A DNA stretch of 40,228 nt, from contig URVX01000001.1 in assembly GCA_900551395.1 (NCBI GenBank), positions 1 to 40,228 on the forward strand, written 5' to 3'. Below are positions 8,304 through 30,777 of the stretch, piece after piece. The DNA is from an uncultured Subdoligranulum sp. (GTDB taxonomy: Bacteria > Bacillota > Clostridia > Christensenellales > CAG-314). Position 1 is the stretch's first letter. Every line of letters starts with the position of its first letter. Position numbers and translations under genes: made by a program. The notes below the pieces were generated by a model. That model worked only from the letters and a program-made list of their open reading frames with translations. It was not told the origin of the DNA and did not search any database.

Positions 8304-8470
8304 TTATGTTCCTCCGTTTATTATTTTAAAACGCCCAGCCTCACGCAAAGCCGTTGCGTTTAATATTTGCGTGGATTTCTCAAAATTCATGCGGAATTTT
8401 CATGTTTCGATTACATTTATACAAAATGCGGAATTTTATGAAAAATTGTCGTTTATCTATGTGTAATCGA

Positions 8471-8499
8471 ATTATATCGTGCGTTTCACATAATGTCAA
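8471..8499 (-). promoter_or_regulatory. sigma-A type promoter for the giant LRR gene
   Basis: Minus strand reads TTGACA (8499-8494), 17-nt spacer, TATAAT (8476-8471), with a T10 run (8519-8510) just upstream of the -35. It lies ~165 nt upstream of the ATG at 8303. Confidence 0.5.
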
Positions 8500-8597
8500 A
8501 TAAAAATACAAAAAAAAAACACATTAGTAAATTTTATGGACTTCCTGTCGCATAATGGAAAATTTTATGTGCCGGACGTGACGACTTGCAATAAGCA

Positions 8598-8625
8598 AAA
8601 GGACTGCCTTAAAAGGCAGTCCTTT
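8598..8625 (-). terminator. intrinsic terminator after the 1333-aa lipoprotein gene
   Basis: Perfect 11-bp stem AAAGGACTGCC / GGCAGTCCTTT with a 6-nt loop, about 20 nt downstream of the stop at 8646-8648. The tail on the minus strand is T-rich. Confidence 0.6.
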
Positions 8626-8645
8626 AGCTGTGTTATTTTATTTTG

Positions 8646-11600
8646 TCACGCTGCTGGCGCTTCAGTCGAGCTGACAAAAGCGCCGGTTTCAAAGTCGGCA
8701 GTCAGCCAAAGCTCGCCCAAGGAGGCGCCGTAAATACGTATCGTGTTTTCATCCACCAGCTCGTAATAAACGGAGTAGGCTCTGCCCAGTCTGTCGATGT
8801 ACGTGCCATAGCCGTAGCCGTTGAACGCCGCCACCTCCCAGCCCGAGGAAACCATTCTGCACTCCCACTGCCCGGCATAGACGGCAAACAAATCGAAGCT
8901 GTCGCCGTCGGTGGAGAGCACGTCGGTCATGAGCGTGAAACGGAAAGCCCGCTCCGAGCTGTCGGCGGGGAGGAAATTCCACTCGTTTTCTCCGTCTGCG
9001 GCAGAGTAGCTCCCGGTTAGCGCTGCGGTTTCTCCTCCGTCCTCGAACAACGACGCGTTGCCAAGACCGTCCAGCACAAGTATCGTCGTGGAAGAAATTT
9101 TGTCGCCGTCGAGCAGGTTGTAAATTCCTCTGCCCGCGTCGAGAAGCAGCAGCGATTTTTGCTGTCCGTCGACGGATATGGCATAGATTTTTTCCTCGCC
9201 GTAACCCCTGCCGTCCTCGTTAAGCACTCTCACCCGCATAAGCTCGCGACCTTCCACCACGTCGTCCGCTTCGCGCACCGCCGCCGCGCCGCGCGCATTT
9301 CCCGCTTCGTCTATGAAAGTCGCCTCGCCGTAAGCGTCTATTTCCAGTCTTCCGCCGTCCGACAAAACAAAGCTTTCCACGTTGCCCTCGTCGTAAACGA
9401 TGTAAACGGCAACGGTGCTTTGACCGAGACTGATTGTGCCGTAAGCAAATCTGAAATCCTCGAATTCGTCGCCTTGGAAAGTCACGTCATACTCGTAGTA
9501 GCCGCTTTCCGACTCCACCCTGACGTAAGCGCCCGAAGCAACCTCAGAAATCTGCGCCTGTTCTCCGTCTGTCGCAGGCTCGTAGCTTTGAAGCGACGCG
9601 CCGCCGAAGCCGTCTAAAAACAGCAGGTATTTTTCCAGCGTGGGTACGCCGTTGTCAAGCGCGAAATACGTTCCGCGTTCAGACCCGGCAAGCTGCGCCG
9701 TGCCTTCGCCCACAATGCGCACCACTCCTCTCGCCCCCGACGCCGTTGTCAAGGTATATTCGTCGTCCGTCAAGGAAACGACGCAAAGCAAATTGCCCAG
9801 CCATGCGGTGCCGTCGCCGTTCACGGCAAATTCGATTCGGGTTTCGCCGTCGGAAATGACAAAATCGGCTTTTTCCCCGCTGTCGTAAACGAAGAAATAA
9901 TTTCCCAACGCGGGATAATATCTGAACACAAAGGAGTTGTAGCCGCTTTCCGCAAGCGCCTCGAAGTTTTCGGCGAAATATTCCGCCGTGAAGGTAAACT
10001 CCATGTACACGACTTGCCCGTCGGTATTGCTGTACGCCAAAGCGGAGTAACTTCCGTCAACCCCCACAACGTAACCGCCGTTGCCGTCGGGGAAACGAAT
10101 AAACGCGCTCCCCACGCCGTCGTTGTTTGTCGCGGTGAAGCCGAAGAACTCGCCTTCCTCCGGCAGACGGTTTTCAAGCTCGGAATAAAAAGTAATTAAA
10201 TGCCCCTCTTTGGTCAAAGAGTTTACCCTGACGGTAAATTGACTCATTTCCAAAGTGAAAGTGATGAAGTCATAGTTCGTTCCGCCGACTGAGTAGCCCT
10301 TTTGGAAAGTATAAACAACGGCAACGGTTCTCGTGTCGCCCTGCTTCAAAAGCGAGCCTTTGCCGAAGCCGTCGCATTTCAGGGTGTAAACCGTGCTTGC
10401 GTCGTGAATTGTGTATTCGCTTTCGGCGTCGTCGGCAATGACAAATGACGACGCGCCCTGCGATTTGTAATAAAAATCAGCGTAAAAAGGAGCAAGCAGC
10501 TGCCGATATTTTATGTTTTCCGTGTCCGCCGCAAACCACTCCGCGACAAAATGATAAATCCCGCTTGTCTCGTCGTAGGTATTTGTTCCCGAAATAACCT
10601 GCTGATATCTGCCGTTTGTCATGCTGACCTCGATAGAAGCCGTCTGACTGTCGAATATGCGCAGCTTGACGGTAAAACCGCTGCGCGCGTTTTCCTCCGT
10701 CCATACCGTGTTGTACTCCGCAAGCTCGCCGTATTTTTCCGTCATGTTGAGACGACCGAATACGCTTTTTCCGTCAACTTCCATACTCACGTAACCGACG
10801 TAATTTATTTTGCCGTCCACTACGACGTAATAGCCGTGCTCACGATAATAAACATAATCGGTTTCGCGCTCGGAATCCTTTTCTCCGTAATAAGCCTTGC
10901 CGAAGCCGTCCGAGCGGAAAGCCAATTCCTGACCGTTCAAATCCGTCAGCACATACTCGCCGCGCGTGTCGTCCGCCAGATAAAACACTGCAACCGTCGT
11001 CACATCGCCCGAAGTGGTTTTCCCCTGCTCCTCTCCGAGACGGCACAAAAAGCTTACTTCGCCGCTCCCGCCGGGATAAACCACTTCCATTACGTCATCC
11101 TTACAAACGTAGCCGCCCGTTATCACGCTCGTATCCGCGTTGGCAAGATATCCCGCCCCGCCGAAGCCGTCAAGTATGACTATCGGATAAGAAATTCCGA
11201 CGTTGTAATAATAATACGTGCCTTCAAAGCCGTCGCTCATCCGGAACACATCCTGCCCGTCAACCTTGTCCAGGCGGAAACGGAAGGTGTGCGACTGCGA
11301 GCTGAACTGATATACCATAGGAGAAACTCTCGTGTATGTACCCGACACTGCCGTGCCGTTTTCAGTCGTGTAAGTCGCCGAGTCCAGTCCGTCCAGCTCT
11401 ATTTTCGCGGCTCCGATGGAAGCTCCGTCGTACTGAAAAAGCTCAAGCGCCGTTTCCGCATCGAAATACGCAAATCTTCTGCCGTCGGCAAGCATCCTGC
11501 CGCGCAGCGTTTCGCCGTCGGAAATTTCAAATTCAAACAGCCGCGTATCCGCGTCGTAAGAGCCTGTCTTTTCTCCCAGCACGGGACGATAAAGCACAAC

Positions 11601-12647
11601 GTGCGCGCTGTCCTCCATGAGAAGATATATGCGGTCTCCGCCGCCGCCCAAGTCCGTCGCGCCGTAATTCCAGCAGGCGTACAGCATGACGGTGCCTTTC
11701 ACTTCCGCTATCTCGTCGCCCGCGCCAAACTCAACGTCGCCGTCGGGGCTTGTAGACCAACCGGCAAACCTGTAACCTCTGACGGAATAGCCGCTGTCGG
11801 CAACCTCGTGCGACGCACCGTAAGGCACGGTCGCATATTCCGTTTCGCCTTCATAATCGGAGCCCTGCGGCGCGTTGACAAAATAATAAACGTATCCGTC
11901 CGTGCGGTAAAAATATGCCTTGTAAACGTTTTTGCCGGCAGCCAGCGTTATCGACTGCGTCATAGTCTGGTCGAGCAGAAAGCCCTCGGGAGCTTTCAGC
12001 ACGGAAGAGCTCAGCTTTATCTCCTTGCCCAGCCAGTCGCTTCCGCCGTCGAAAACAATTTCGTCGGTAGGCTCGCCGTATTCCCCGTCGAAATTTTCGA
12101 GATAGACCTCGACGACATACGCCGCTTTGTATCTTGCGGTAAGGCTAAGCCCGCCCGCCGGCATAACCGCGTTTTGCGCGATCTGCGAGCTGCCGTTGAA
12201 CCAGCCACCGAACTCGGCGCCGTCAAGGCGCGGAATTGCCTGAGAAAGCACTGAGGACAAGGACTGACCGACTACGAGAGAATAAAACGTGTCGTCAAGC
12301 GTCCCTCCCGCGGGATCCAGCGTAAGAGTAGCCGTTTGCTCCGCCGAAAACTTTGCGTAGTAAGTTATATTTTCGTCGGGCATAATTTTAGGCAATTCGA
12401 CAGGACCTTCGGAAAAATCCTCCGTCAGGTACCACCCCTCGAAAATATGTCCGTCAAGCGTCGGATTTTCGGGTGTCTCAATGACCTCCCCCGCCTTTGC
12501 ATTTATCGGCGCAATTATCGTTCCGCGTCCGGTCTCAAACGTAAGCTTGTAAGACCTCGAGCAGGCAACTGCGACAGCAAGCGTGAACGTCAGCAAAACC
12601 GCTAACAGCACAATGTAAAAAATTGATTTTTTTGAATTTTTTCCCAT
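8646..12647 (-). CDS. giant (1333 aa) surface lipoprotein with N-terminal Listeria-Bacteroides repeats and about nine uncharacterised DGFG-type modules
   Basis: ORF 8646..12686. I prefer the internal ATG at 12647 (MGKNSKKSIFYIVLLAVLLTFTLAVAVAC), which follows GGAGAG at a 5-nt spacer. Basic N-terminus, hydrophobic helix and lipobox-like AVAC. Flg_new-like repeats: YKLTFETGRGT...FEGWYLTEDF...ITYYAKF, a second ending EFGGWFNGSS...LTARY, and a third YRFAGWSTSPDG...VMLYACW. Confidence 0.85.
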   Translation of the reverse strand: MGKNSKKSIFYIVLLAVLLTFTLAVAVACSRSYKLTFETGRGTIIAPINAKAGEVIETPENPTLDGHIFEGWYLTEDFSEGPVELPKIMPDENITYYAKFSAEQTATLTLDPAGGTLDDTFYSLVVGQSLSSVLSQAIPRLDGAEFGGWFNGSSQIAQNAVMPAGGLSLTARYKAAYVVEVYLENFDGEYGEPTDEIVFDGGSDWLGKEIKLSSSVLKAPEGFLLDQTMTQSITLAAGKNVYKAYFYRTDGYVYYFVNAPQGSDYEGETEYATVPYGASHEVADSGYSVRGYRFAGWSTSPDGDVEFGAGDEIAEVKGTVMLYACWNYGATDLGGGGDRIYLLMEDSAHVVLYRPVLGEKTGSYDADTRLFEFEISDGETLRGRMLADGRRFAYFDAETALELFQYDGASIGAAKIELDGLDSATYTTENGTAVSGTYTRVSPMVYQFSSQSHTFRFRLDKVDGQDVFRMSDGFEGTYYYYNVGISYPIVILDGFGGAGYLANADTSVITGGYVCKDDVMEVVYPGGSGEVSFLCRLGEEQGKTTSGDVTTVAVFYLADDTRGEYVLTDLNGQELAFRSDGFGKAYYGEKDSERETDYVYYREHGYYVVVDGKINYVGYVSMEVDGKSVFGRLNMTEKYGELAEYNTVWTEENARSGFTVKLRIFDSQTASIEVSMTNGRYQQVISGTNTYDETSGIYHFVAEWFAADTENIKYRQLLAPFYADFYYKSQGASSFVIADDAESEYTIHDASTVYTLKCDGFGKGSLLKQGDTRTVAVVYTFQKGYSVGGTNYDFITFTLEMSQFTVRVNSLTKEGHLITFYSELENRLPEEGEFFGFTATNNDGVGSAFIRFPDGNGGYVVGVDGSYSALAYSNTDGQVVYMEFTFTAEYFAENFEALAESGYNSFVFRYYPALGNYFFVYDSGEKADFVISDGETRIEFAVNGDGTAWLGNLLCVVSLTDDEYTLTTASGARGVVRIVGEGTAQLAGSERGTYFALDNGVPTLEKYLLFLDGFGGASLQSYEPATDGEQAQISEVASGAYVRVESESGYYEYDVTFQGDEFEDFRFAYGTISLGQSTVAVYIVYDEGNVESFVLSDGGRLEIDAYGEATFIDEAGNARGAAAVREADDVVEGRELMRVRVLNEDGRGYGEEKIYAISVDGQQKSLLLLDAGRGIYNLLDGDKISSTTILVLDGLGNASLFEDGGETAALTGSYSAADGENEWNFLPADSSERAFRFTLMTDVLSTDGDSFDLFAVYAGQWECRMVSSGWEVAAFNGYGYGTYIDRLGRAYSVYYELVDENTIRIYGASLGELWLTADFETGAFVSSTEAPAA

Positions 12648-12734
12648 ATTGCTCTCCTTTTTTCTTCTCGTTCTTGTCAATCCCATTCAACGACATTCCA
12701 CTTCAAGAACACATAAAAATGGTTAACATGTTTT

Positions 12735-12763
12735 AATATATCAAAAGGCTTATTTATTTGCAA
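12735..12763 (-). promoter_or_regulatory. candidate promoter for the 1333-aa lipoprotein gene
   Basis: Minus strand reads TTGCAA (12763-12758), 17 nt, TATATT (12740-12735), ~90 nt upstream of the ATG at 12647. The context is A+T-rich, so chance matches are likely. Confidence 0.35.
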
Positions 12764-12919
12764 GCAAAATAAAATAAAAACATTTGCGTCTTCGCCACAA
12801 ATTTTTTGAATAAAAATTTACGATATACGCTAAAATGTATAAATCCGATTGCGCCGAAGCTTAAGGCCTTAGCGACAATTAAATTATATTTTTACAACCT
12901 AAAGGCATGTCGGAAAAGA

Positions 12920-13070
12920 AAAGAAACACGCCACTTGCGTCTTCGTGTTTTTCTTTAAGTGCGCCATGCAAAGAAAAAAGATGCCTGTTTCGCATAAAAG
13001 CCGGCTTGTCGAAAAGCGGCGCTCGCCGCTCCGTCGCCAAGAAAGCCGCAGCCGTGCGCGAAGAGGCGCG
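12920..13070 (+). repeat. diverged, inverted copy of the tRNA-Arg-linked repeat unit (terminator-like hairpin plus structured ~110-nt body)
   Basis: GAAACACG..CGTGTTTTT hairpin (12922-12952), then GCGCC (12961-12965), hairpin ATGCAAAG..GTTTCGCAT (12966-12995), hairpin AGCGGCG-CTC-CGCCGCT, and closing GGCGCG (13065-13070). The parts follow the same order as the 172-bp units at 20195-20538 read on the minus strand. Spurious ORFs over both loci give similar peptides (GALKEKHEDASGVFLFF vs GALKKKTRAGASGVVF). Confidence 0.6.
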
Positions 13071-13074
13071 TAAA

Positions 13075-13103
13075 AAGCCCGAAGCAAACAAATACTCGGG
13101 CTT
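13075..13103 (-). terminator. intrinsic terminator after 13181..13801
   Basis: Stem AGCCCGA / TCGGGCT. On the minus strand it is followed by TTTTTA. It lies ~80 nt downstream of the stop at 13181. Confidence 0.5.
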
Positions 13104-13180
13104 TGGAATTTTTATTCATTGAAATTCGGAGATTTGCCGAAATTTTAGTCGTCGGTTTTCGGCGGGTTGTTTGAATCCGG

Positions 13181-13801
13181 TTACTTTTCTGCAGAAATGT
13201 TTTCCGGCGCTTTCGTAGCGTCGTAATCATAACCGATGTAAAAAACGAGCGTTATAAGTATGTCCGTTACGGGAGTTATAAGCAGATGCCAGGAGCTGCC
13301 GAAAATACGGTAATCCGCAAGTCTTATTATATTCAGGATGAAAATTATAAAGCATTCTGCAATTCTTGCAAGCACAAGAATTTCTATAATTCTGTCGCTT
13401 TTAAGCTTTCCCGAAAGCCCCAAAACATAGATTATGCCTATCGCTATCGTTGTCAGACCCAATATAAAATTGAACACGCTCAAGCAGATGTCCGAAGCGG
13501 AGCCGTTTTCAAAGCCGAGCCAATGGGAAAAAACGGTAAACAAATGGTGCATGAACAAATATCCGAAATAAGCGACAAACAACGTCTTCATCCAGAATTT
13601 GTTGTCCCTGTAAACCATGTAAAAACCAAGCAGGAAAAATGCCGCCTGCACGGACAATGAAAATATAAAATAAAAATAAACCGAAACCGAATTGTCATGC
13701 CAATTTACAAGCCTTGCAATGTTGTAAATTAAATTAAGGAACATTACTGCGATTATCAGACCGACAAGCCATTCCTTTTTCCGTTTAAACAAGCTTTTCA
13801 T
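13181..13801 (-). CDS. hypothetical polytopic membrane protein (206 aa)
   Basis: Only long ORF at this locus. The translation shows about six hydrophobic segments and the DNA is A+T-rich. No family recognised. Confidence 0.6.
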   Translation of the reverse strand: MKSLFKRKKEWLVGLIIAVMFLNLIYNIARLVNWHDNSVSVYFYFIFSLSVQAAFFLLGFYMVYRDNKFWMKTLFVAYFGYLFMHHLFTVFSHWLGFENGSASDICLSVFNFILGLTTIAIGIIYVLGLSGKLKSDRIIEILVLARIAECFIIFILNIIRLADYRIFGSSWHLLITPVTDILITLVFYIGYDYDATKAPENISAEK

Positions 13802-14003
13802 AAACTGCCTCCTGCTTGATATTCTTTATTCGTTTACAGTATATTGCTTTTGACGAAATTTTGTCAACTTCCGTAAAGTATTTGACGCATTAAGCATATC
13901 GGGCGTTTTAAACGCATTACGAATTATATTTATGCCGAATTAAATCAGAGGAAAAAAGTTTCGTCTCGTTTCGGGGCAGAGTTTAATAAAAAAATTTGAA
14001 ATT

Positions 14004-14681
14004 TCAGTCTTTTTTACATTTAACGGCTTTAACCGCCGTTAAAACAGACATGAAAATAAGAAATATCCATACAGCAAAAGAGCTGCAGGCGCAAACGACA
14101 AGCATGTCTCCGCTTATGCCGCCGCCGAAAGTCATGATAAGCGTGTATTGCAGAGACAGAAGGGATACCAACGCGTCGACAAAATTGATATTGCGCAGCA
14201 TTTTTACGCTCAGATGCCGGGATTTTTGCGATTTCGAGAAATTTACTGCCGACATAATTATTTTGTATGTGGTGTAAGTCGCTATCGTTATGGCAGTCAC
14301 GGTTGAAAAGTTTACGTTTTTTTGCTGCAGCGTCATAAGCGTTATCGGTGCAATCAAGGCAATGTCCGTTGCGAAAAGCAGTATGCTTTGCACCCGATAC
14401 AAATGCTTTCTCGCATTTTCCTTTTGCTGCTCGTCAAGCCCTGCTTTGAAAAATTTGATTTCGGAACACAAAATATAGGCTCTTATGCACAAAAGCGACA
14501 GATAATACGCGGCAATTCCGAAATTCCATGCGGTTTTGTATTTCAACCCCAGATAAAAATTGAAAACCGCATAAGCGGCGCCGACAAGAAAGGAAAGAGC
14601 CGAAAAGAAAAACGTGCGAAACGCATAATCGTTTTTTATAAGTTCGAGATATTTTCTTTTCGTCCCTTTTTTTCTTGTCAT
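14004..14681 (-). CDS. hypothetical polytopic membrane protein (225 aa)
   Basis: ORF with a basic N-terminus (MTRKKGTKRKY) followed by several hydrophobic helices. Its start lies 16 nt downstream of the stop of the gene 14697..15233, so the two are probably co-transcribed. Confidence 0.6.
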   Translation of the reverse strand: MTRKKGTKRKYLELIKNDYAFRTFFFSALSFLVGAAYAVFNFYLGLKYKTAWNFGIAAYYLSLLCIRAYILCSEIKFFKAGLDEQQKENARKHLYRVQSILLFATDIALIAPITLMTLQQKNVNFSTVTAITIATYTTYKIIMSAVNFSKSQKSRHLSVKMLRNINFVDALVSLLSLQYTLIMTFGGGISGDMLVVCACSSFAVWIFLIFMSVLTAVKAVKCKKD

Positions 14682-14696
14682 TTAAATCGCCGTTTT

Positions 14697-15233
14697 TCAG
14701 ATTAAATCTGCCTTTAAAAGGTCGTTTCCTTTTTCGAGAATATTTGCAAGCTTTTCTTCGTTGTCGTCTATGACGGGCAGCAACGCTTTGGTTTTTTTCT
14801 CAACACGTTTTTTGTAAATGAAATAATTTACTCCGCAAAGCGCCAGCCCGACAATTCCGAGCGCAATTCCGCCCCAAAAGGCGGATGGCTTGTTTTCCGC
14901 CAGCATAACCAGACTCATACCTCCTCCAAGGATAAGCGCGGCGATGCAGCCGAATATGTAAGCGAAAATACTTGCGCCCAGTGTTTTTGCGCGCTGCAAT
15001 CCGTTTATTGTTTGAAATACGTCCTCGGCCTGTCTTTCAAGACGGGAAAGCTCCTGCTTGTGCTTTTGTTTCCTGTCGCGTTTGAGAGAAAGCGTTATTC
15101 CGTCCACCGCCGTCGGAGTGGTTGAAGTGACCTCCCAGCCGAACGCCTCATACATATCCGTTGCCTTTGTCTGATCCTTTGCTTTGACTGTCTTTGTCCT
15201 GTATTCATAAGACACGAAATCCTTTTCCTGCAT
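14697..15233 (-). CDS. hypothetical protein, soluble N-terminal domain plus two C-proximal TM helices (178 aa)
   Basis: ORF track gives 14697..15431. The internal ATG at 15233 (MQEKDFVSYEYRT) is preceded by GGAGG at a 7-nt spacer, and the upstream 66 codons look like non-coding read-through. Confidence 0.6.
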   Translation of the reverse strand: MQEKDFVSYEYRTKTVKAKDQTKATDMYEAFGWEVTSTTPTAVDGITLSLKRDRKQKHKQELSRLERQAEDVFQTINGLQRAKTLGASIFAYIFGCIAALILGGGMSLVMLAENKPSAFWGGIALGIVGLALCGVNYFIYKKRVEKKTKALLPVIDDNEEKLANILEKGNDLLKADLI

Positions 15234-15391
15234 TTTTGATACCTCCGTAAAAATTGTTTTTTCCCGACGAAGCCGTCGACGCGCGTTTCGATTGACTTCC
15301 TCGTAAGACAAGTGTATCATATAAGAAAATTTTAATTCAATCAACCGTTTGCGCGGGCAGAAATACAAGATGCGCCGAAATGTAACCGCAA

Positions 15392-15934
15392 ATGAGACGG
15401 AAAAGGAGAATTTGTATCGTGGATTATGCACCCGAAGAATATACGAGGTTTTACATTGTTCAGGCTTTGTTCAAATTGATGAGCGCATACGAGTACGACA
15501 AAATAAGCGTAACAGACATAGCGGAAAAGGCAGGCGTGGGAAGGGCGACGTTTTATCGGTATTTCAAGCGCAAGGAAGACGTAATTATTTTTTACTTCGA
15601 ACACAACACGAAAGAATTTGTTTTCGGTCAGCGCTTTTATCCGAGATGCAGAGAGGATTACTTAATGGTCGCCAAAAATGTTTTTAAGCTGTTCAAGCAA
15701 AACAAGGAGCCCTTCAAGCTGTTGAGAAAAGCTCGGTTGGAGCATATTTATCTTGATTTTCTCAACAAAGGCTTTGCGGAAATGTTCAGCGACAATCATC
15801 CCGACTTAAACAAATATACGCCTTTTCTTTATGCCGGCATGCTGTTCAATGTGTCTATGCTCTGGCTGGACGACGACTGCGCCGAAGATATTGACAGGCT
15901 TGCCGAAATAATGGTGGACAGCGTTTTTAAATAA
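15392..15934 (+). CDS. TetR/AcrR-family transcriptional regulator
   Basis: N-terminal HTH signature ISVTDIAEKAGVGRATFYRYFKRKEDV, divergent from the membrane-protein genes. The true start may be GTG at 15419, which follows AAGGAG. Confidence 0.8.
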   Translation: MRRKRRICIVDYAPEEYTRFYIVQALFKLMSAYEYDKISVTDIAEKAGVGRATFYRYFKRKEDVIIFYFEHNTKEFVFGQRFYPRCREDYLMVAKNVFKLFKQNKEPFKLLRKARLEHIYLDFLNKGFAEMFSDNHPDLNKYTPFLYAGMLFNVSMLWLDDDCAEDIDRLAEIMVDSVFK

Positions 15935-15940
15935 AGAAAA

Positions 15941-15990
15941 AAAGAAAACACGAGCAGGCGCAAGCGGTGTCGTGTTTTCGTATCTGGCGC
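15941..15990 (-). repeat. 50-bp copy of the tRNA-Arg 3' end (last 6 nt, GCGCCA) plus its terminator hairpin; left boundary repeat of the islet
   Basis: AAAGAAAACACGAGCAGGCGCAAGCGGTGTCGTGTTTTCGTATCTGGCGC appears identical to 20323-20372 and 20495-20544. The similarity stops exactly after TGGCGC, the reverse complement of the tRNA end GCGCCA. Confidence 0.8.
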
Positions 15991-15993
15991 ACC

Positions 15994-16039
15994 AAACGCA
16001 ACCTTATTCGAATACTATCGGGTAGGGTTGCGTTTTTTT
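15994..16039 (+). terminator. hairpin with T-run just inside the left islet boundary
   Basis: AAACGCAACC (15994-16003) pairs with GGTTGCGTTT (16026-16035) and is followed by TTTT. Confidence 0.5.
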
Positions 16040-16049
16040 ATTTTAGCAC

Positions 16050-16079
16050 TTGCTAAAACAAAAGAATATTTGGTATAAT
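16050..16079 (+). promoter_or_regulatory. candidate promoter of the RM/AbiH cassette
   Basis: TTGCTA (16050-16055), 18-nt spacer, TATAAT (16074-16079), ~30 nt upstream of the ATG at 16108. Confidence 0.5.
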
Positions 16080-16107
16080 ATTCCAAAAGTATTTTTAAGG
16101 TAGTTTT

Positions 16108-18904
16108 ATGACCGATACGGAGAGGAAAAAGGCGGCGAAAGAGTTTGCCGAATATTGGCAGAATAAAGGCTATGAAAAGGGCGAAAGCCAGACCTTTTGG
16201 TTGACGCTTTTGAGGGATATTTTGGGCATATCCAAGCCCGAACAGTTTATTACGTTTGAAGAAAAAGTCAAGCTCGACAACACAAGTTTTATCGACGGGC
16301 TTATCCCCTCCACGCACGTTTTAATCGAACAAAAGAGCGCGGACAAGGACTTGCGCAAACCCATAAGGCAGTCCGACGGCACTCTGTTAAACCCCTTTCA
16401 ACAGGCAAAACGCTACTCCGCCGAGCTGCCCTACTCCGAACGCCCTCGATATATAATAACCTGCAACTTCCGCGAATTTCTCATTTACGATATGGAGAAG
16501 CCCACGGGCGAACCCGACAGCATACTTTTAAAAGACTTGCCCAAGGAATACTACCGCTTGCTATTTCTTGTTGAAACCAAGAGTGAACTGTTGCACCGTG
16601 AGGAGCGCATTTCCATTCAGGCGGGCGAGCTGGTAGGCGTATTATACGACGAATTATTAAAGCAGTACAAAGACCCCGCCGACGAACACGCCTTAAAAAG
16701 CCTTAATATGCTCTGCGTAAGGCTTGTTTTCTGCCTTTATGCGGAAGACAGCGGTCTGTTCGGCGAACACCTTAAATTCCACAACTATATCAAAAAGGTT
16801 GCCGACAAGGATAAAAAAGACGTTCGCCGCACGCTAATAGAGCTTTTCAAAGTCCTCGATATGACGCCACAAAAGCGTGAAGAATACGACCCGTTTATGG
16901 ACGAAGAGCTTGCCTCGTTCCCCTACGTCAACGGCGGATTATTCGCCGACGAAAACATACTTATTCCACCCTTTAACGAAAGGATAGTCAGTCTTTTATT
17001 GAAAAACGCAAGCGAAGATTTTGATTGGAGCGAAATCTCCCCCACCATTTTCGGCGCGGTGTTTGAAAGCACGCTAAACCCCGAAACACGCCGTTCAGGC
17101 GGTATGCACTACACCTCGATTGAAAATATCCATAAGGTAATCGACCCCTTGTTTTTAGACGATTTAAACGCAGAGCTTGAACAAATCAAGGAAATCAAGG
17201 TGGAAAAAACCCGCAACGCACAGTTGGAAAACTTCCGTCAAAAGCTTGCCTCGCTCACCTTTTTAGACCCCGCCTGCGGTTCGGGCAATTTCCTTACGGA
17301 AACCTATATCTCCCTGCGCAAACTTGAAAATAAGGCGTTGGAACTGCAATATCACGGGCAGATACAGTTTGAAACGGGCAGTATTATTAAGGTTTCAATC
17401 GGTCAATTTTACGGGATAGAGATAAACGACTTTGCGGTAACGGTTGCAAAAACCGCGCTTTGGATAGCCGAAAGCCAAATGCTGAAAGCAACCGAAGAAA
17501 TCGTCAATATGCGCCTTGACTTTTTGCCCTTGAAATCGTATGCGAATATTGTGGAAGGCAACGCCCTGCGCCTCGATTGGGAGAGCGTAGTACCCAAAGA
17601 TAAACTAAACTACATAATGGGCAATCCGCCGTTTGTGGGTTATTCTTTGCAATCACCCAAACAAAAAGCAGATATACTTTCTATATATGTGGACGAAAAA
17701 GGCAAGCCATATAATACGGCAGGAAAAGTTGACTACGTTGCAGGTTGGTATTTCAAAGCGGCGAAACTGATTGCAAATACAAATATCAAAGTGGCGTTTG
17801 TATCGACGAACTCTATCACGCAAGGCGAACAGGTAGCCGCAGTATGGAAACCGCTTTACGATAGGTTTAATATCCATATTGATTTTGCACATAGAACATT
17901 TAGGTGGGATAGCGAGGCAAGTTTAAAAGCCCACGTTCATTGCGTTATTGTTGGGTTTAGTGTTGCACCGAATAATAAGCCTAAAATTATATATTCTTCC
18001 GATCGCCCGTTAATTGCGGAGAATATAAACGCTTATTTACTTAACGCACCAAACATTTTTATCGAAAGCAGAAAAAAGCCTGTCGCCGCTGTTCCTGAAA
18101 TATTAAAAGGCAGTAGCCCCGTAGATGACGGTAACTTTTTCTTCACTGACGAAGAATATAATGAATTTATAAAAGCGGAGCCACAGTCAAAAAAATACAT
18201 AAAAAGGTTTTTTGGTGCAAGAGAATATTTACACAATATTCGCCGTTGGTGCTTATGGTTGGTTGGAGTTTCTCCTGCTGAACTTAAAACAATGCCTTTG
18301 GTAATGCAACGATTGACTTCTGTTAAAAATTTTAGACTTTCTAGTACAAAATCGGCAACACAAAAATTTGCAGATTATCCTTATCGATTTATGGAATTAC
18401 GGCAACCAACAACAGATTATATTTTAATCCCTAGACACACTTCTGAAAATCGAAAATATATTCCGTTTGGTTATGAGTGCTGAAATTATATGTGGTGATG
18501 CAAACAATATGTTACCACAGGCAACGCTATTTCATTTCGGTGTTTTAACTTCAAACGTTCATATGGCGTGGGTTAGAGCCGTTTGCGGTAGATTAGAAAT
18601 GCGATATAGATATTCAAACGATATTGTCTACAATAACTTCCCGTGGTGCAATCCTACCGAAAAGCAAAAGGCGAAAATCGAACAGACGGCGCAAGCAATT
18701 TTGGACGCCCGTGCACTCTATCCCGATTGCTCGCTTGCCGATTTGTACGACGAGGTTACAATGCCGCCCGAACTCAGAAGAGCTCACCAAGCAAACGACA
18801 AGGCAGTTATGCAGGCATATGGGTTTGATGTCAAGACAATGACCGAAAGCGCTTGCGTCGCCGAACTTATGAAAATGTATCAGGAATTGGTGGAGGGGAA
18901 ATGA
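16108..18904 (+). pseudogene. MmeI-family type IIL restriction-modification enzyme (fused endonuclease / N6-adenine methyltransferase), reading frame interrupted near 18472-18476
   Basis: ORFs 16108..18483 and 18467..18904 are consecutive parts of one protein.
- N-terminal PD-(D/E)XK-like motif: FIDGLIPSTHVLIEQKS (D-X10-EQK).
- SAM motif I: FLDPACGSGNFL.
- Catalytic motif IV: IMGNPPFVG.
- C-terminal block: FHFGVLTSNVHMAWVRAVCGRLEMRYRYSNDIVYNNFPW.
The first frame reads YIPFGYEC then a stop. The second frame (open from 18428) continues SAEIICGDANN. This fits a +1/-2 indel. Confidence 0.8.
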
Positions 18905-18905
18905 A

Positions 18906-20065
18906 ATGACGGATTATGATTTATTGATTGTAGGAAATGGTTTTGATATTGCTTGCGGTTATAAAACTTCGTACCAAAATTTATACGAACTAATGAAAGC
19001 TGCAAGTGAAAAAGATGAACAAGAATTTTACGCATATTTTGAAAGAGAAAACCCTAATATTGAATTAGAAACGGCAAAATCAAGAGGGTTGTCTATTTTC
19101 TATAACGAAATTAGCAGAACGCTGAAATCAAATATTTTTATAAATTACTTTTTAGCCTATAATACTGTTTTTGAAAGTTGGGTAGCTTTTGAAACCGAAT
19201 TAACAAACATTATCAATGCTTTTGATAATTTTTTTGAAGCGCTTAAAAAATATATGCCAAGAAACTCGGTTTATGATTTTGTATATACCGTTATTCCTAA
19301 TTCTATCGATGAAATTGTTTTTTCTTTAATTAAGGAATGTTCATATTTTAGTCAAGAATATTGCACAGAACTCATTCACACACATTTCGCTTTTATATTA
19401 AGGATTTGCATAATATTCAAGGTTTATTATGGACAAATAAAGTAAATGAATATATAAATAACTTTTGTGATTATATCTATACAGAACTAAACAAGTCTTC
19501 AAATCTCTTTTCTACATATTTAAATATTTTTACTGCACTTAAACCATCTAAAACAGCTAGTAAATTTGGTTTTAAAATAGATTACGCTATTTGTTTCAAT
19601 TATACAAAAACGTGTGAGTTAGTGTATAAATCATCATTAGCATCCATATGTTACCTTAACGGTAAAATAAACTACCAAAATAGAGTAAATGAGTTACTAT
19701 CAAGCAACATTATTTTTGGTACAAATGAAGCGAGTTTTAAAAATATAGGATTGGACAAATTAACAAAAAGCAGCCAAAGACTTCTTAAAGAAACAGATTT
19801 CAATAACTTAAATGAAATGCTTGAAGGAGCTAAAGAATCTTGGAACGAAAATGTGTCGATTTGTATATACGGACATTCATTAAGCATAGCTGATAAAGAT
19901 ACATTAAAAATGATATTTAAATGCTTTAAAAAGCTGAATATTTATATTTATTATTTAAACGATAAAGCTAAAGAAGAACTGATAGCTAACTTAAAAGTAA
20001 TTTTAACCCCTAAAAAGGTAAGTGAATTAAATTCAAGCAACTGCTTGAAATTTATAAAATGTTAA
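18906..20065 (+). pseudogene. AbiH-like abortive-infection protein, reading frame interrupted between 19352 and 19445
   Basis: N-terminus MTDYDLLIVGNGFDIACGYKTSYQNLYELM matches the AbiH-family signature (hydrophobic-IGNGFD-x3-G-x-x-T-x-Y). ORFs 18906..19445 and 19361..20065 overlap in different frames and together give ~386 aa, a typical AbiH size. The ATG lies 1 nt after the stop of the RM gene. The DNA is very A+T-rich. Confidence 0.7.
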
Positions 20066-20087
20066 ATAACCAAATCTAAAATGGCAC

Positions 20088-20147
20088 TGTGGCGGGTGCT
20101 TGAATAAACGAGCGCGCGGCTGCGCCGCGCTTTCAAGTACCCGCCAC
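20088..20147 (+). other. 60-nt compound stem-loop at the right islet boundary
   Basis: Outer 16-bp stem GTGGCGGGTGCTTGAA / TTCAAGTACCCGCCAC, with one G-T pair on the + strand. Inner 7-bp GC stem GCGCGGC-TGC-GCCGCGC. It directly abuts the repeat copy that starts at 20148. Confidence 0.6.
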
Positions 20148-20538
20148 AAAAGAAAACACGAGCAGGCGTAAGCGGTGTCGTGTTTTTTCGTTTCCGGCGC
20201 GCCTTAAGGAGCTCGCAAGGAGCGGCAGCTTCTGTCGCGACGGATCAGCGAATTCCGCGTTTAACTATCGTTTTCTTGCGGAATGAGCGTCATGTATTTC
20301 GTCCTCCGCAAGGTGCGCTTAAAAAGAAAACACGAGCAGGCGCAAGCGGTGTCGTGTTTTCGTATCTGGCGCGCCTTAAGGAGCTCGCAAGGAGCGGCAG
20401 CTTCTGTCGCGACGGATCAGCGAATTCCGCGTTTAACTATCGTTTTCTTGCGGAATGAGCGTCATGTATTTCGTCCTCCGCAAGGTGCGCTTAAAAAGAA
20501 AACACGAGCAGGCGCAAGCGGTGTCGTGTTTTCGTATC
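20148..20538 (-). repeat. tandem array next to tRNA-Arg: two apparently identical 172-bp units (20195-20366, 20367-20538) plus a diverged terminator copy (20148-20194); each unit ends with a copy of the tRNA 3' end
   Basis: GAGCTCGCAAGG starts at 20209 and 20381, and the homologous tRNA segment GAGCTCGA at 20553, giving a period of 172. Copies of the tRNA 3' segment (TGGCGCGCCTTAAGGAGCTCG on +) lie at 20195-20215 (first base C) and 20367-20387, and in the tRNA itself at 20539-20559. Confidence 0.85.
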
Positions 20539-20615
20539 TGGCGCGCCTTAAGGAGCTCGAATCCCTAACCTTTGGTTCCGTAGACCAACGCTCTATCCAA
20601 TTGAGCTAAAGGCGC
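20539..20615 (-). tRNA. tRNA-Arg (anticodon ACG), CCA encoded
   Basis: Minus strand: GCGCCTT TA GCTC AATTGGATA GAGC G TTGGT CTACGGA ACCAA AGGTT AGGGA TTCGAGC TCCTT AAGGCGC G CCA. This gives a 7-bp acceptor stem, 4-bp D stem, 5-bp anticodon stem with loop CT-ACG-GA, and a T arm with a TTCGAGC loop. Length 77 nt. Confidence 0.9.
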
Positions 20616-20633
20616 ATTAAATTTTGCTTATAT

Positions 20634-20662
20634 ATTATAAGCCTCGTGAAACCAAAAGTCAA
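20634..20662 (-). promoter_or_regulatory. consensus sigma-A promoter of tRNA-Arg
   Basis: Minus strand reads TTGACT (20662-20657), 17 nt, TATAAT (20639-20634), 18 nt upstream of the tRNA 5' end. Confidence 0.65.
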
Positions 20663-20721
20663 TCGTTTTCCCACCCTTTGCCGCAACAAAAAAGTTAAAT
20701 TTCACTCGAAAAGCAACGCAA

Positions 20722-20746
20722 AAACCGTCGGGAGCTCCCGACGGTT
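20722..20746 (-). terminator. intrinsic terminator after mscL
   Basis: Palindrome AAACCGTCGGGAGCTCCCGACGGTTT, followed on the minus strand by TTTGCG. It lies 20 nt downstream of the mscL stop. Confidence 0.7.
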
Positions 20747-20765
20747 TATTCGATAAGTAAAATTT

Positions 20766-21395
20766 TCAGCGCTTTGCCGCCAGCTCCTTGAGAGAGTCGC
20801 GGATTTCTTCCAGCAAACGGGTGTTGGCAGACGCTTTGGCTTCGGCTTCCACCTTTTCCTCATCCTCTTTTTGTTTTGCAAGCCGCTCCTCTTCCTCTTT
20901 TGCCGCCTGCGCTTTGGCAACGTCTTCCGCATATCTTGCCTTTGCCTGCGCCTTCGTCATACCCTCGCGACGATATTTGGATATCGCTTTCTTTTCGGAC
21001 AGCTCCATACCCTCGACAAATTTTTCACGCGCCTGCGCAAAGGAATTTATCGCCTTGACAATACAGAACAAAACAAACGCGATAATCAGGAAATTGATAA
21101 TGGCGTTTATAAACGCGCCCCAATCTATGTAAATAGAATTCGCAAGGTCGATTTGGCCGTCTACATAAGCCGGCTTCAAAAAGGTATAGACCTCTGACAG
21201 CGAATTTTTGCCCAAAATCAAAGCAAGCAGCCAATTTATCAGAGGCTTTAAAATATGGTCGCTCAGCGCGGTTATGATTGCTGTAAACGCGCCGCCGACA
21301 ATAACGCCGACAGCCATATCCATGACGTTGCCGCGCGTGATAAACTGCTTGAATTCGCCGAAAAAGCCCTTAAGTCCGTTTTTCTTCTTTTCCAT
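20766..21395 (-). CDS. mscL: large-conductance mechanosensitive channel MscL with extended charged C-terminal tail
   Basis: N-terminus GFFGEFKQFITRGNVMDMAVGVIVGGAFTAIITALSDHILKPLI is the conserved MscL TM1 region. At 209 aa it is longer than my recollection of typical MscL (~130-150 aa). Confidence 0.85.
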   Translation of the reverse strand: MEKKKNGLKGFFGEFKQFITRGNVMDMAVGVIVGGAFTAIITALSDHILKPLINWLLALILGKNSLSEVYTFLKPAYVDGQIDLANSIYIDWGAFINAIINFLIIAFVLFCIVKAINSFAQAREKFVEGMELSEKKAISKYRREGMTKAQAKARYAEDVAKAQAAKEEEERLAKQKEDEEKVEAEAKASANTRLLEEIRDSLKELAAKR

Positions 21396-21529: not shown

Positions 21530-23475
21530 TCAATGCGGCAACACGCCGTCGTTGCCTTCGGACGCCGACGGTCTTTTGTCCTGCGTCGAATATTTGACGT
21601 CGATAAAGTCAATTACCTCCGCGGCGCTCTTGCCTTCCATAAGCATATTGACCTCATCGGTGTGAATGGTTTCTTTTGTTATCAGCACCTTTGCCATGTT
21701 GTGCAAAATATCCAGCTTGCCCTTGAGAATTTCCGTGCCGCGCGCATGACACTCGTCTACGATGCGCCTGATTTCCTCGTCGATAAGAGCCGCCGTCTCG
21801 TCGGAATAGCCCTGCGTTGTGTGATAATCTCTGCCGACAAAAACCTCCTGATCTCCGCCGTAATACAGCAAGCCGACCTTTTCGCTCATGCCCCACTCGG
21901 TGACATTTTGCGGCAGCGTTCAGTCAACGCCTTTATATCGCCGCTGGCGCCGGTGCAATAGTCCTCAATAACAAGTTCTTCGGCAATTCTGCCGCCAAGC
22001 GTCATGGTTATGTTGTCAAGCAGGTAAGCCTTCGAGACATGCTCGTTGTCGTTTTCGGGACGCGTCATCGTGAAGCCTGCCGCCATCCCGCGCGGTATAA
22101 TTGTGACCTCGTGCACGGGCTCGCAGTTCTTGAGACTGCACGCAAGTATTGCGTGTCCCGCCTCGTGATAAGCGGTTATCCGTTTGTCATGCTCGGTAAC
22201 AAGACGCGACTTTTTGGCGGGACCCATTTCCATTTTGGTTATTCCCTCGTTGACGTCCGCCATAGTTATCTGACGCCTGTTGTCGCGCGCGGCAAGTATT
22301 GCGGCTTCGTTGAGGCAGTTTTCCAAATCCGCGCCGGTAAACCCGGACGTAATTCTGGCTATCGTTTTGAAGTCTACGGTTGCGTCTATGGGCTTGTTGC
22401 GCGCGTGCACCTTCAGAATAGCCTCTCTGCCTCTGACGTCGGGACGATTCACGAAAATCTGCCTGTCAAAGCGTCCCGGACGCATAAGCGCGGGGTCAAG
22501 CACGTCGGGGCGGTTTGTCGCCGCCATAACGATAATCCCGCTGTTGGTGTCAAAACCGTCCATTTCCACAAGCAGTTGGTTCAAGGTCTGCTCTCTTTCG
22601 TCGTTTCCGCCGCCGAGTCCCGCGCCGCGATGTCTTCCGACAGCGTCTATTTCGTCGATAAACACTATGCACGGCATGTTTTTCTTTGCCTGCTCGAAAA
22701 GGGAACGCACCCTGCTTGCTCCGACACCGACGAACATTTCCACAAAATCACTGCCCGAAATGGAGAAAAACGGAACGCCCGCTTCTCCCGCCACCGCTTT
22801 GGCAAACAAGGTTTTGCCTGTTCCCGGAGGGCCGACAAGCAGCACGCCGGCGGGAATTCTCGCACCCAGTTCGGTATATTTGCGGGGGTTTTTCAAAAAG
22901 TCGATGATTTCTACAAGCTCTTCCTTTTCCTCCTCGGCGCCGGCAATGTCTGAAAAACGCGTCTTGACGCTTTGCTGGACGCGCGCCGTGTTTTTGCCGA
23001 AGCTCATCCCCTGATTGTTCTGACTGCGGAAAATGTTTATCATAAACACAAACATAACGACAATCAAGATAATAGAGAAAAGCGTAGGCAAATAATCCCA
23101 AAAGCTCGCCTGCACCGGATTGTTGAACCCGATTTGAACGGCAGACGCCCCCGCAGGCAGACTGTCGTTGCTCTCCGTTATCAATTCGTAAATAACGGGG
23201 TGCATGTTGGGTCCGATGTAAAAGAAATAATCGTAATACTTTTCCGCGTTGTTACGCGAGGCTGCTTCGGTGTTTCTCTTGACTACGTTTACCGAATAAC
23301 CCGTGTTGAAGTAGACCGCCTGAATATTGCCGGCGTCCAGATCCTCCTTGAACTGAGCGTAAGTGGATTGCTTGCTGTTGCCTACAAACTGCAGTATGAA
23401 AACCACTGCGAGCACAACCACCAGCAAAATAATCAATATCATCCACCAGCTAGTTTTTCTGTTGTTCTGATTCAA
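21530..23475 (-). CDS. ftsH: ATP-dependent zinc metalloprotease FtsH; frame broken by an apparent 1-nt deletion at ~21904 as assembled
   Basis: ORF 21886..23475 carries the TM anchor, Walker A GPPGTGKT, the SRH region and the zinc motif HEAGHAI. ORF 21530..21889 is the C-terminal continuation ([12 protein letters not shown]...). On the minus strand, AAA ATG TCA CCG AGT GGG GCA TGA becomes AAA ATG GTC ACC GAG TGG GGC ATG AGC if one G is added, giving [17 protein letters not shown] start at 23475 follows AAGGAG. Confidence 0.85.
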
Positions 23476-25842: not shown

Positions 25843-26565
25843 CTCTAAAACGAGCTGAGACAGAATAGCGTTTTTTTTAATCCAAAAAAATATAATTCCA
25901 TTCTGCCTCACAAAAAATGCCAATAGAGCGCAAACTCAAATCTTGTATCAATCAATTTGGAAAATCGGGTACGCCACATGGCAACGGATATCCGCTCCTT
26001 GCGTTTGCCTTACCAATTGCTTTTGACTTTGTAGAGCTGAGCAAGTTACATATAAAATTATAAATATTTTGAAAATATTAATCATTAATTAAAAAGCTTA
26101 AGTAAGGCAAATTCGGGTTAACTCATAAATTGAATAAAATGGCAAAATACCGGGAGCCGCTCTAAAACGAGCTGAGACAGAATAAGAATTTTTTAAACCC
26201 CAAAAAAATTATGCCATTCTGCCTCACAAAAACGCCAATAGAACGTAAACTCAATCTTAAATCAATCAATTTTAGAAATTTTGGCACGCCACATGCAAGG
26301 AGCAAGCTGCTTACATTTGCCTTTCCAAAGCTTTTGATTTTGTCAAGCAGCAACAGTAAGTTATATTCAAGAAATAATTAAATTTTAAAAGTCGTTAATA
26401 AAAACTTTATAATTAGGGCAAATCCCGGTAACTCACACACATTAAATAAAATGACGAAACGCCGGGCTCTTTAAAGAAAACAGAAAAATTCTCTCTTCTC
26501 AGACAGATTAGTCAAATTTTTTTTCGACGAAAAAACTTCTCATTCTGTCTCAGCTCGTTTTAGAG
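25843..26565. repeat. non-coding structured repeat element: two diverged ~317-bp direct units plus a third hairpin-only unit, with an identical 24-mer in two direct copies and one inverted copy
   Basis: CTCTAAAACGAGCTGAGACAGAAT lies at 25843-25866 and 26160-26183, and its exact reverse complement at 26542-26565. Each copy starts a long A/T-cored hairpin (25857-25909, 26174-26225, 26498-26553). No ORF with an RBS was found. Confidence 0.8.
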
Positions 26566-27578: not shown

Positions 27579-27607
27579 TTGAAAAATACTTTTTATTATG
27601 ATATAAT
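27579..27607 (+). promoter_or_regulatory. candidate parAB promoter
   Basis: TTGAAA (27579-27584), 17 nt, TATAAT (27602-27607). The parS at 27646 lies between this promoter and the parA start. Confidence 0.5.
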
Positions 27608-27645
27608 AATACAAATTTTTCAGTAATAATTTCGTTTCGAAGTTA

Positions 27646-27661
27646 AGTTTCACGTGAAACA
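27646..27661. promoter_or_regulatory. parS site (15/16) in the parA leader
   Basis: Sequence AGTTTCACGTGAAACA. Confidence 0.75.
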
Positions 27662-27702
27662 ATTTGTCGGATTTCGATTTGCAATTTTCAACAGGAGTGT
27701 CT

Positions 27703-29506: not shown

Positions 29507-29514
29507 ATTTTAAG

Positions 29515-30775: not shown

Positions 30776-30777
30776 CA

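Follow-up and report, generated by a model that had tools for sequence, protein, structure and literature searches.

A strain-variable islet of two defence-type genes between terminator repeats at a tRNA-Arg gene of an uncultured gut Clostridia species

Genes of the islet

The DNA analysed here (40,228 nt, positions 1-40,228 of contig URVX01000001.1, hereafter called the window) comes from an uncultured human-gut Clostridia species, whose closest reference is 'Subdoligranulum sp. CAG:314'. Next to a tRNA-Arg(ACG) gene the window hosts a small islet, in which a restriction-modification gene of the MmeI family (type IIL/IIG) and a gene of the AbiH family are enclosed by direct repeats. Strains either have or precisely lack the islet, with breakpoints at the direct repeats, and where present it comes in at least two diverged alleles. 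Coordinates of all features are given in Table 1. A preliminary description, made from the letters of this DNA, had reported that only MmeI-family and AbiH-like coding sequences lie between the repeats, and this is borne out by open reading frames (ORFs), Pfam and PADLOC.

The MmeI-family gene is not a single open frame in the window. Relative to the L005 allele two nucleotides (TT) are lost, and the frame ends at residue 791, inside the target-recognition domain. The five Pfam MmeI domains are nonetheless encoded in order, as MmeI_N, MmeI_hel, MmeI_Mtase and profile positions 1-146 of 207 of MmeI_TRD are matched by the upstream ORF, and MmeI_TRD 147-205 and MmeI_C by the downstream ORF. The PADLOC profile REase_MTase_IIG (E 4.6e-291) is similarly divided, positions 3-769 being found in the upstream and 769-909 in the downstream ORF. 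The intact 932-aa protein of L005 matches the MmeI structure 5HR4 over residues 7-928 (E 6e-210), and the frame is open also in L128, L129, L141, L142 and L119. MmeI-family enzymes are defined by a D...ExK nuclease motif and an NPPY/F methyltransferase motif; they cleave about 20/18 nt from an asymmetric site, of which one strand is methylated. In the islet gene, FIDGLIPSTHVLIEQKS near 16290-16340 reads as the nuclease motif, and GNPPFVG at 17620-17640 as the methyltransferase motif. The nearest homologues, P0002 and P0006 (78-81%), are found at unrelated loci, one between housekeeping genes and the other beside a Phage_integrase gene, with neither repeats nor AbiH.

The AbiH-family gene starts 1 nt past the MmeI stop codon, and is split in the window by a CA insertion relative to the intact genes of L128 and L119. 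The N-terminal half matches Pfam AbiH (PF14253) over profile positions 1-124 (E 2.9e-11), the C-terminal half over positions 96-256 (E 2.4e-13). Both matches are above the cut-off; the PADLOC AbiH match is weak (E 6.6e-5). Full-length relatives measure 374-390 aa (L128, P0122). More distant relatives, 42-45% identical, were noticed directly after a methyltransferase, in a cluster formed by a C5-methyltransferase gene, an unknown gene and Vsr, or inside a TIR-NACHT island (L131 4494-8191; L134). As in the islet, the 45%-identical relative in L131 follows a restriction-modification gene bearing a methyltransferase; the evidence suggests that the pairing of AbiH with restriction-modification genes is recurrent. 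A literature search found no paper naming AbiH together with MmeI.

From its sequence, the islet is predicted to be one MmeI-AbiH operon, equipped with its own promoter and with a terminator hairpin at each end. The two inner hairpins pointed out earlier are real (z -7.4 and -6.3), and both are conserved in the variant islets of L119 and L128. The left one probably insulates the operon from read-through of tetR, the gene that flanks the islet on this side. In the outer stem of the right one, the single G-T wobble of the window (position 20138) corresponds to a G-C pair in L119, L118, L128 and L129.

Terminator repeats and 172-nt units

Four copies of a terminator repeat are found at the locus. 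Three of them (15939-15990, 20321-20372 and 20493-20544) are 100% identical over 52 nt. The remaining one, which borders the islet on the right (right direct repeat, DR-R'), differs by an insertion of 2 nt and by three substitutions, one of them in the hairpin loop. Coordinates and copies had thus been read correctly in the preliminary description. A pattern built on the 37-nt repeat core has four matches in the window, versus 0 expected by chance. In the left direct repeat (DR-L) a hairpin with a 10-bp stem is set between an A-run and a T-run, and is followed by CGTATC and then by TGGCGC, the reverse complement of the last 6 nt of tRNA-Arg. The hairpin is terminator-like in both directions, with folding energies of -18.3 kcal/mol for the plus and -16.3 kcal/mol for the minus strand (z about -2). 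Similarity between the left copy and the copy adjacent to the tRNA ends after TGGCGC, and hence inside the tRNA acceptor end, as had been noted. Both repeats flanking the islet end in GGCGC; the right copy runs on into a 20-nt tRNA piece, and the left one includes 6 nt only.

Proceeding from the tRNA towards lower coordinates, one encounters a hairpin, two tandem 172-nt units, DR-R', the islet, the fourth terminator copy and the convergent tetR gene. Each unit consists of about 100 nt of a sequence called X, a 21-nt piece of the 3' end of tRNA-Arg (T-loop to CCA), a spacer of 6-9 nt and a terminator repeat. The duplicated tRNA 3' fragments reported earlier are therefore limited to 6 nt in the left copy, but amount to 21 nt in each of the units. 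Strains of this species have 1 to at least 4 units, and the sister species described below has 0-1. The units start with the 5' acceptor strand of the tRNA, GCGC(A)CCTT, and end with the T-loop-to-CCA piece, and each could fold back in a tRNA-like manner with a replaced core. The unit junction, TCCTTG followed by CGAGCTCC, is conserved in the sister species at 79% identity (window 20182-20525; L013 10761-11034; L136). A tRNA-like RNA found no support from RNAalifold run on 5 variants (covariation term +0.84), which represent too few lineages. In an Rfam scan of 15800-20800 the true tRNA is the only match, and neither repeat nor units are recognized.

The repeat is not a dispersed generic terminator, a possibility that had been raised against a link with variable cargo, because all 23 metagenome matches map to the tRNA-Arg locus, and a scan of viral contigs gave 0 matches to it. 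Viral contigs gave 0 matches to the 41-nt tRNA 3' piece as well.

Occupied, empty and variant sites

Same-species contigs, 98-99.9% identical, were recovered via exact-protein look-ups and one metagenome pattern scan. Sampling alleles by look-up is not quantitative. The bulk of the evidence comes from short-read metagenome assemblies, several of which have N-gaps within the repeat array. The islet is carried by at least nine independent assemblies of the species, and at least five lack exactly the islet plus one repeat copy.

Islets fall into two types. Type A is found, with the same junctions, in the window and in L003, L004, L005, L118, L128, L129, L141 and L142. Type B is found in L119 and L120, where the same repeats lie at both contig ends. 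The end junctions of type B are those of type A, namely GGCGC followed by ACCAAACGCAACC, and CCCGCCAC followed by AAAAGAAAAC. The two types differ in the subtype of the left repeat, which is the tRNA-proximal one in type A (CGTATCTGGCGC) and the distal one in type B (CGTTTCCGGCGC). L119 and the window are 97.7% identical in the 5' part of MmeI up to 17639, share no similarity over 17640-18361, and are 80.4% identical thereafter. The type-B AbiH is 81% identical at the protein level. Both type-B ORFs are intact, and encode 931 and 390 aa.

Empty sites of the kind denominated H1 were identified in L110, L138 and L136, and probably occur in L137 and L140, both of which have gaps. Here the tetR stop is followed by one repeat, the 20-nt tRNA piece, one or more units, the repeat and tRNA-Arg, an arrangement corresponding to the window minus the islet and one repeat. 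The single H1 repeat is a composite, with its tetR-side flank from DR-L and its right-hand part from DR-R' (TTTTTTCGTTTCCGGCGCGCC); an 8-nt duplication, AAAGAAAA, is found within the DR-L flank of L138 and L136. A hybrid repeat of this sort is the expected product of reciprocal recombination. The empty sites that the preliminary description proposed to look for do exist; the simple form (tetR, one terminator, tRNA) it had imagined was not seen.

Alternative occupants, also anticipated there, were found as well: besides the variant islet of L119 and L120, a 266-nt spacer occupies the site in L124, L125 and L127. In this type of site, denominated H0 (L124, L125 from GCA_964309625.1, L127, L130), the X sequence continues into the unique 266-nt spacer up to tetR, and the second repeat is missing. 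In L124, L125 and L127 the region near 8485-8750 replaces window positions 15940-20200 and part of a unit; the spacer has a terminator-like hairpin of its own, and tetR ends in TGA rather than TAA. L135 carries yet another, unrelated spacer.

Seven of the type-A copies were aligned to follow the decay of the genes, L141 and L142 being outside the alignment. The loss of TT at 18470 in the MmeI gene is shared by four of the seven (window, L003, L004 and L118). In AbiH, the insertion of CA at 19364-65 is present in six copies and a 1-nt deletion at 19026 in two; a deletion of 8 nt at 19383-90 and one of 1 nt at 19522 occur in single copies. L128, which has in-frame deletions of 6 and 33 nt, is the only aligned type-A copy with both frames open, a condition found also in the type-B islets of L119 and L120. 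The islet is thus being inactivated by indels in most strains, the window included. What had been described as a compact cassette of restriction-modification and abortive-infection genes is in the window a double pseudogene, both frameshifts having gone unnoticed, and this copy is, judging from its reading frames, very probably non-functional.

Flank haplotypes

In a 4.1-kb alignment of the mscL side, the flank next to the tRNA gene, islet-plus and H1-empty strains interleave. A derived ACAA variant is common to L141, which has the islet, and to L136, L137 and L140, which lack it; L137 and L141 share three more variants. Another variant is shared by L139 (plus) and L138 (minus). Islet states and flank haplotypes are found in all four pairings. 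This interleaving means that the islet state changed, or was recombined, more than once. A second clade, formed by L110, L124, L125 and L127, is 0.8% diverged on the mscL side, and is islet-free. Divergence between the window and L005 is about 0.1% inside the islet, and equal to that of the flanks. The elevated density of single-nucleotide polymorphisms beside the islet was considered as a sign of import and discarded, as the cluster at the 3' end of tetR is specific to the window lineage and occurs in islet-plus and islet-minus strains alike.

Base composition

The islet had been described as more A+T-rich than its surroundings, AbiH above all. The difference is real (G+C 0.387, versus 0.491 for the window outside 12600-20200), and AbiH is the most extreme part. 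The low G+C begins, however, well before the islet: at about 12600 the value falls from about 0.54 to 0.30-0.44, in a stretch that takes in three unknown genes and tetR (G+C 0.42, third-position G+C, or GC3, 0.54). The first 1.5 kb of the MmeI gene (G+C 0.47, GC3 0.58) resemble mscL (GC3 0.57) and ftsH (GC3 0.63). Strongly A+T-rich are only the 17640-18361 segment (GC3 0.32) and AbiH (GC3 0.21), versus 0.57-0.63 for core genes. By this measure AbiH and the 17640-18361 segment are foreign and the 5' 1.5 kb of MmeI host-like, so that the islet is a mosaic.

Neighbouring sequences and sister species

The stop codon of tetR abuts the left repeat, and tetR lies beside the site in islet-plus and islet-minus strains alike. 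On the other side, the position of mscL next to the tRNA is conserved across all related loci; ftsH also lies upstream of tRNA-Arg in the window. The ftsH ORF of the window (21886-23475, minus strand) has a 1-nt deletion at 21903 seen only here, and encodes 529 aa, versus 637-648 aa in L003, L004, L005 and L110. The deletion may stem from an error of sequencing or assembly, or else be real and affect a gene that is normally essential, and bears on the trust to be placed in single-base indels of the window. The dnaA, dnaN and parAB genes (plus-strand ORFs at about 27600-33600, matched to L135 1213-6355) are 7-13 kb from tRNA-Arg, which places the hotspot close to the replication origin.

Other features of the window are variable or repetitive. 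To the left of tetR and unk244, the genes unk225, unk206 and Flg_new give way in L135, L136 and L142 to genes that encode 544, 485 and 481 aa and lack Pfam matches. This is a second variable segment beside the islet, and assorts independently of the islet state. Positions 12800-13600, including intergenic DNA and the end of the 206-aa ORF 13181-13801, are hypervariable: strains whose identity otherwise exceeds 99% show 58-69 differences per 400 nt here. Giant minus-strand ORFs (Flg_new, LRR-type) with many internal repeats of 41-45 nt (families D1 and D4) lie in window positions 1-12686. The A+T-rich DNA that separates the DUF1256 and colicin V genes contains, at 25843-26279, a tandem duplication of about 316 nt whose copies are 85% identical.

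The sister species, 'Subdoligranulum sp. CAG:314', is represented by L013 and L093-L115, with the exception of L110 and L114, which belong to the same species as the window; nucleotide identity is about 79%. It keeps the tRNA, the repeat and 0-1 unit, followed by different genes (radical SAM, nitroreductase, MarR). The tetR-unk244-unk225 block (window 14004-15934; L013 13238-15136) is inverted there relative to mscL and the large Flg_new gene, and unk206 is absent. The tRNA is missing from L013, the CAG:314 reference; as other contigs of the sister species have it, the absence was attributed to a deletion or misassembly in that metagenome-assembled genome, and left unused. No homologue of the 266-nt spacer of the H0 sites (X-long) was found in the sister species. 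Polarization of insertion versus deletion by comparison with the sister species failed, because of the inverted tetR block and of the X-long spacer lacking a homologue.

Larger elements use the same tRNA gene. The sister-species contigs L093, L094, L100, L107 and L113 contain an integrated element, the end of which is marked by a 45-nt repeat of tRNA-Arg that spans from the anticodon loop to CCA. The element in L113 (1-9999) includes AbiEii, a DUF6088 (AbiEi-like) gene, and genes for a 1642-aa DEAD/MZB helicase and a 913-aa unknown protein. Within the species of the window, L123 (1-8078) corresponds to an H0 site plus an element of more than 8 kb ending at a 45-nt tRNA copy from the anticodon loop, and featuring ArsR/ArsP, thioredoxin, AraC/GyrI, WYL and DJ-1 genes. 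The integrase ends of the L113 and L123 elements lie outside the fetched DNA. The neighbourhood of tRNA-Arg is therefore a true variable hotspot. Classes of integration sublocations within tRNA genes were reportedly defined by Williams in 2002.

Table 1. Features of the tRNA-Arg(ACG) locus in the window
Feature	Position	Strand	Remarks
tetR-family regulator gene	15392-15934	+	Pfam TetR_N, E 6.7e-11; left flank of islet
Left direct repeat DR-L	15940-15990		51 nt; 100% identical to 20322-20372 and 20494-20544
Islet proper	15991-20147	+	4157 nt; missing from empty-site strains
Left inner hairpin, putative intrinsic terminator	15994-16035	+	18-bp stem and T-run; -25.5 kcal/mol, z -7.35
Promoter-like site for MmeI-AbiH operon	16050-16079	+	TTGCTA, 18 nt, TATAAT, upstream TG; 10/12, consensus match only
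MmeI-family (type IIL/IIG) gene, truncated ORF	16108-18483	+	791 aa; 2-nt (TT) deletion at 18470
Exchangeable MmeI segment	17640-18361	+	Within Pfam target-recognition-domain match; low G+C
Out-of-frame MmeI remainder	18467-18904	+	End of target-recognition domain and C-terminal domain
AbiH-family gene	18906-20065	+	Split into ORFs 18906-19445 and 19361-20065 by 2-nt CA insertion at 19364-65
Right inner hairpin	20088-20147		G+C-rich, 60 nt; -44 kcal/mol, z -6.3
Right direct repeat DR-R'	20148-20200		53 nt; diverged copy
Tandem 172-nt units, two	20182-20353 and 20354-20525	-	98% identical copies
tRNA-Arg(ACG)	20539-20615	-	ARAGORN; Rfam tRNA, 62 bits; hotspot anchor
Promoter-like site upstream of tRNA-Arg	20634-20662	-	TTGACT, 17 nt, TATAAT; 11/12 consensus matches
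mscL	20766-21395	-	Pfam MscL, E 1.3e-33; right-hand core flank

Proposed gain or loss of the islet through the repeats

As in tRNA-linked islets, direct repeats including the 3' end of a tRNA gene flank a segment whose presence varies among strains, with breakpoints at the repeats. The sequence under study is probably a horizontally acquired, integrase-less islet, located in a variable region linked to tRNA-Arg(ACG), gained or lost via the flanking repeats and reshuffled by homologous recombination. Reciprocal recombination between the 51-53-nt repeats would remove or insert the islet, the simplest event being a deletion of the RecA type; alternatively, a trans-acting recombinase could carry out site-specific recombination. 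The alleles would then be reshuffled between strains by homologous recombination in their flanks. The excision junction predicted for a circle or a tandem is CCCGCCAC-AAAAGAAAACACGAG...GGCGC-ACCAAACGCAACC.

A few considerations weigh against this interpretation. The direction of change is not polarized, and the empty sites could be either never-occupied sites or deletion products, as the same sequences are predicted in both cases. The polymorphism may in part be old and vertically inherited, since the islet-free strains with diverged flanks form a separate clade, and in a recombining population the finding of all four pairings of islet state with flank haplotype may reflect exchange in the flanks rather than repeated excision. 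Many scaffolds have 100-N gaps in the repeat array, where short-read assemblers can mis-join sequences; L138, L142 and L110 are gap-free. The role of both genes in phage defence is predicted from homology.

Mobility of its own seems not to be a property of the islet. As stated in the preliminary description, no integrase is found within it, nor among the genes called in the roughly 10 kb that flank it on each side. Relaxase and transfer genes are similarly missing inside the islet, where the two defence ORFs fill 16108-20065. It does not resemble a transposon or insertion sequence, because terminal inverted repeats are not found at the ends, the duplication measures 51-53 nt, and no Pfam transposase domain is encoded. 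Integron attC sites have the core sequences GTTRRRY and RYYYAAC; neither was seen in the right inner hairpin, inspected by eye, and the neighbourhood gene calls include no integrase. BLAST searches of plasmids and phages with the islet returned only distant MmeI-family matches (65-73%). The candidate minimal unit of mobile defence envisaged in the preliminary description thus finds no substantiation, as no recombinase, no circular junction, and no copy outside the tRNA-Arg locus, outside the species, or on plasmids or phages has been found.

The extreme form of this idea, an autonomously mobile unit moving by a new mechanism with the terminator hairpin as target, is scarcely credible. Precise boundaries, hairpins at both ends and the lack of a recognizable recombinase would agree with it, but MmeI and AbiH are well-characterized defence families with no known recombinase activity, the cassette occurs at one locus in one species only, neither terminal inverted repeats nor short target duplications are present, and relatives of both genes are found elsewhere in unrelated contexts free of repeats. 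A less demanding alternative, tenable even if the odds are clearly against it, is a cis-mobilizable element, which would have lost the integrase and kept attL and attR in the form of the 51-53-nt repeats, and would be excised, integrated or co-transferred by a recombinase encoded elsewhere, or by an incoming element targeting the 3' end of tRNA-Arg. The loss of integration and transfer genes with retention of both att sites fits the published definition (PMC5704250). The repeats include the tRNA 3' end, the tandem repeat copies and short X units resemble accretion at an att site, and integrase-type elements do use tRNA-Arg; these elements, however, end at the 45-nt repeat starting in the anticodon loop and not at a repeat made of 6 nt plus a terminator. 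The different left-repeat subtypes of type-A and type-B islets suggest recombination with different copies of the array, but gene conversion within the array explains them as well. Neither an integrase pseudogene nor an integrative or conjugative relic is found in the islet, and viral contigs carrying the repeat or the tRNA 3' piece are lacking, as is a circular junction. That a recombinase encoded elsewhere uses the repeat as a genuine attachment site, and that the array is a landing pad for the two-gene cassette and perhaps for other cargo, is best regarded as unlikely.

It is very improbable that the islet is an old, vertically inherited feature of a clade, that the islet-free alleles are alternative haplotypes of ancestral origin, exchanged solely through homologous recombination in tetR and mscL, and that the repeats are by-products of a tandem duplication of the tRNA terminator with no role in the process. 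The distinct mscL-side haplotype of the islet-free L110, L124, L125 and L127, the identical divergence of islet and flanks in the comparison of the window with L005, and the unrelated sequences that occupy the site in other alleles (X-long in L124, L125 and L127; the L135 spacer) could all be accommodated by such a history. Yet what H1-empty strains lack, compared with islet-plus strains, is precisely the islet and one repeat, and this holds both on mscL-side flanks that are near-identical (L136, L138) and on the diverged islet-free haplotype (L110). Breakpoints falling by chance at both repeat edges in all alleles are unlikely, and the GC3 values of 0.21-0.32 and the type-B allele reveal foreign input.

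Comparison with known systems

The locus offers a natural case, resolved to the base, in which a tRNA-linked hotspot of an uncultured gut bacterium gained or lost a small defence module. One and the same population comprises alleles that are empty, occupied, variant or decayed, which is useful for studying the turnover of defence genes, the more so as several independent inactivating indels and the exchange of a target-recognition segment in an MmeI-type enzyme are available. It is also a documented instance of duplicated terminators forming the boundaries of an islet that has no integrase. Should the repeat be an attachment site, the islet would represent a minimal cis-mobilizable defence cassette without an integrase of its own in a gut anaerobe. 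The islet fits known patterns, those of tRNA-linked defence hotspots, many of which have no detectable genes of mobile elements (PMC10121019), and of decayed cis-mobilizable elements flanked by att sites, and reveals no new mechanism or defence system.

The islet enzyme shares with MmeI (PDB 5HR4) the five-domain architecture over the full length. The N-terminal D...EQK is consistent with the nuclease motif of the family, the methyltransferase motif is NPPF, and the islet alleles exchange the segment holding the target-recognition domain, as MmeI-family enzymes do. Unlike MmeI, the window allele is truncated within this domain, and its enzymatic function is a predicted one. The AbiH-family protein matches Lactococcus AbiH (PF14253) across the reconstructed length, and has the conserved N-terminal GNGFD motif; it differs in being frameshifted in the window and in the weak PADLOC match, and its role is likewise predicted.

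Cis-mobilizable elements, decayed islands arranged in tandem at tRNA-linked att sites, were first described for the ICESt1/ICESt3 family of Streptococcus thermophilus (PMC5704250). Like them, the islet is flanked by direct repeats including the 3' end of the target gene, lacks integration and transfer genes, varies among strains, is part of an array with further repeat copies, and carries as cargo a restriction-modification/defence module. Unlike them, it has repeats that take in no more than 6 nt of the tRNA, together with 45 nt of downstream sequence, and no relic of an integrative parent was found in it. The use of another sublocation, the anticodon loop, by the integrase-type elements at this tRNA-Arg is also at odds with what is expected of a cis-mobilizable element.

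Defence hotspots at tRNA or core-gene junctions are known in E. coli and Pseudomonas (Hochhauser et al. 2023, PMC10121019; Johnson et al. 2023, PMC10250203). In E. coli 18 of them are at tRNA loci, and hotspot #37 has no detectable mobile element in 68% of the occupied cases (PMC10121019). The tRNA-Arg locus resembles these hotspots for the fixed position beside a tRNA and for the variable defence cargo in near-identical genomes. It differs from them because the host is an uncultured gut Clostridia species, the islet is unusually small, with two genes, and the breakpoints are resolved to a repeat of 51-53 nt.

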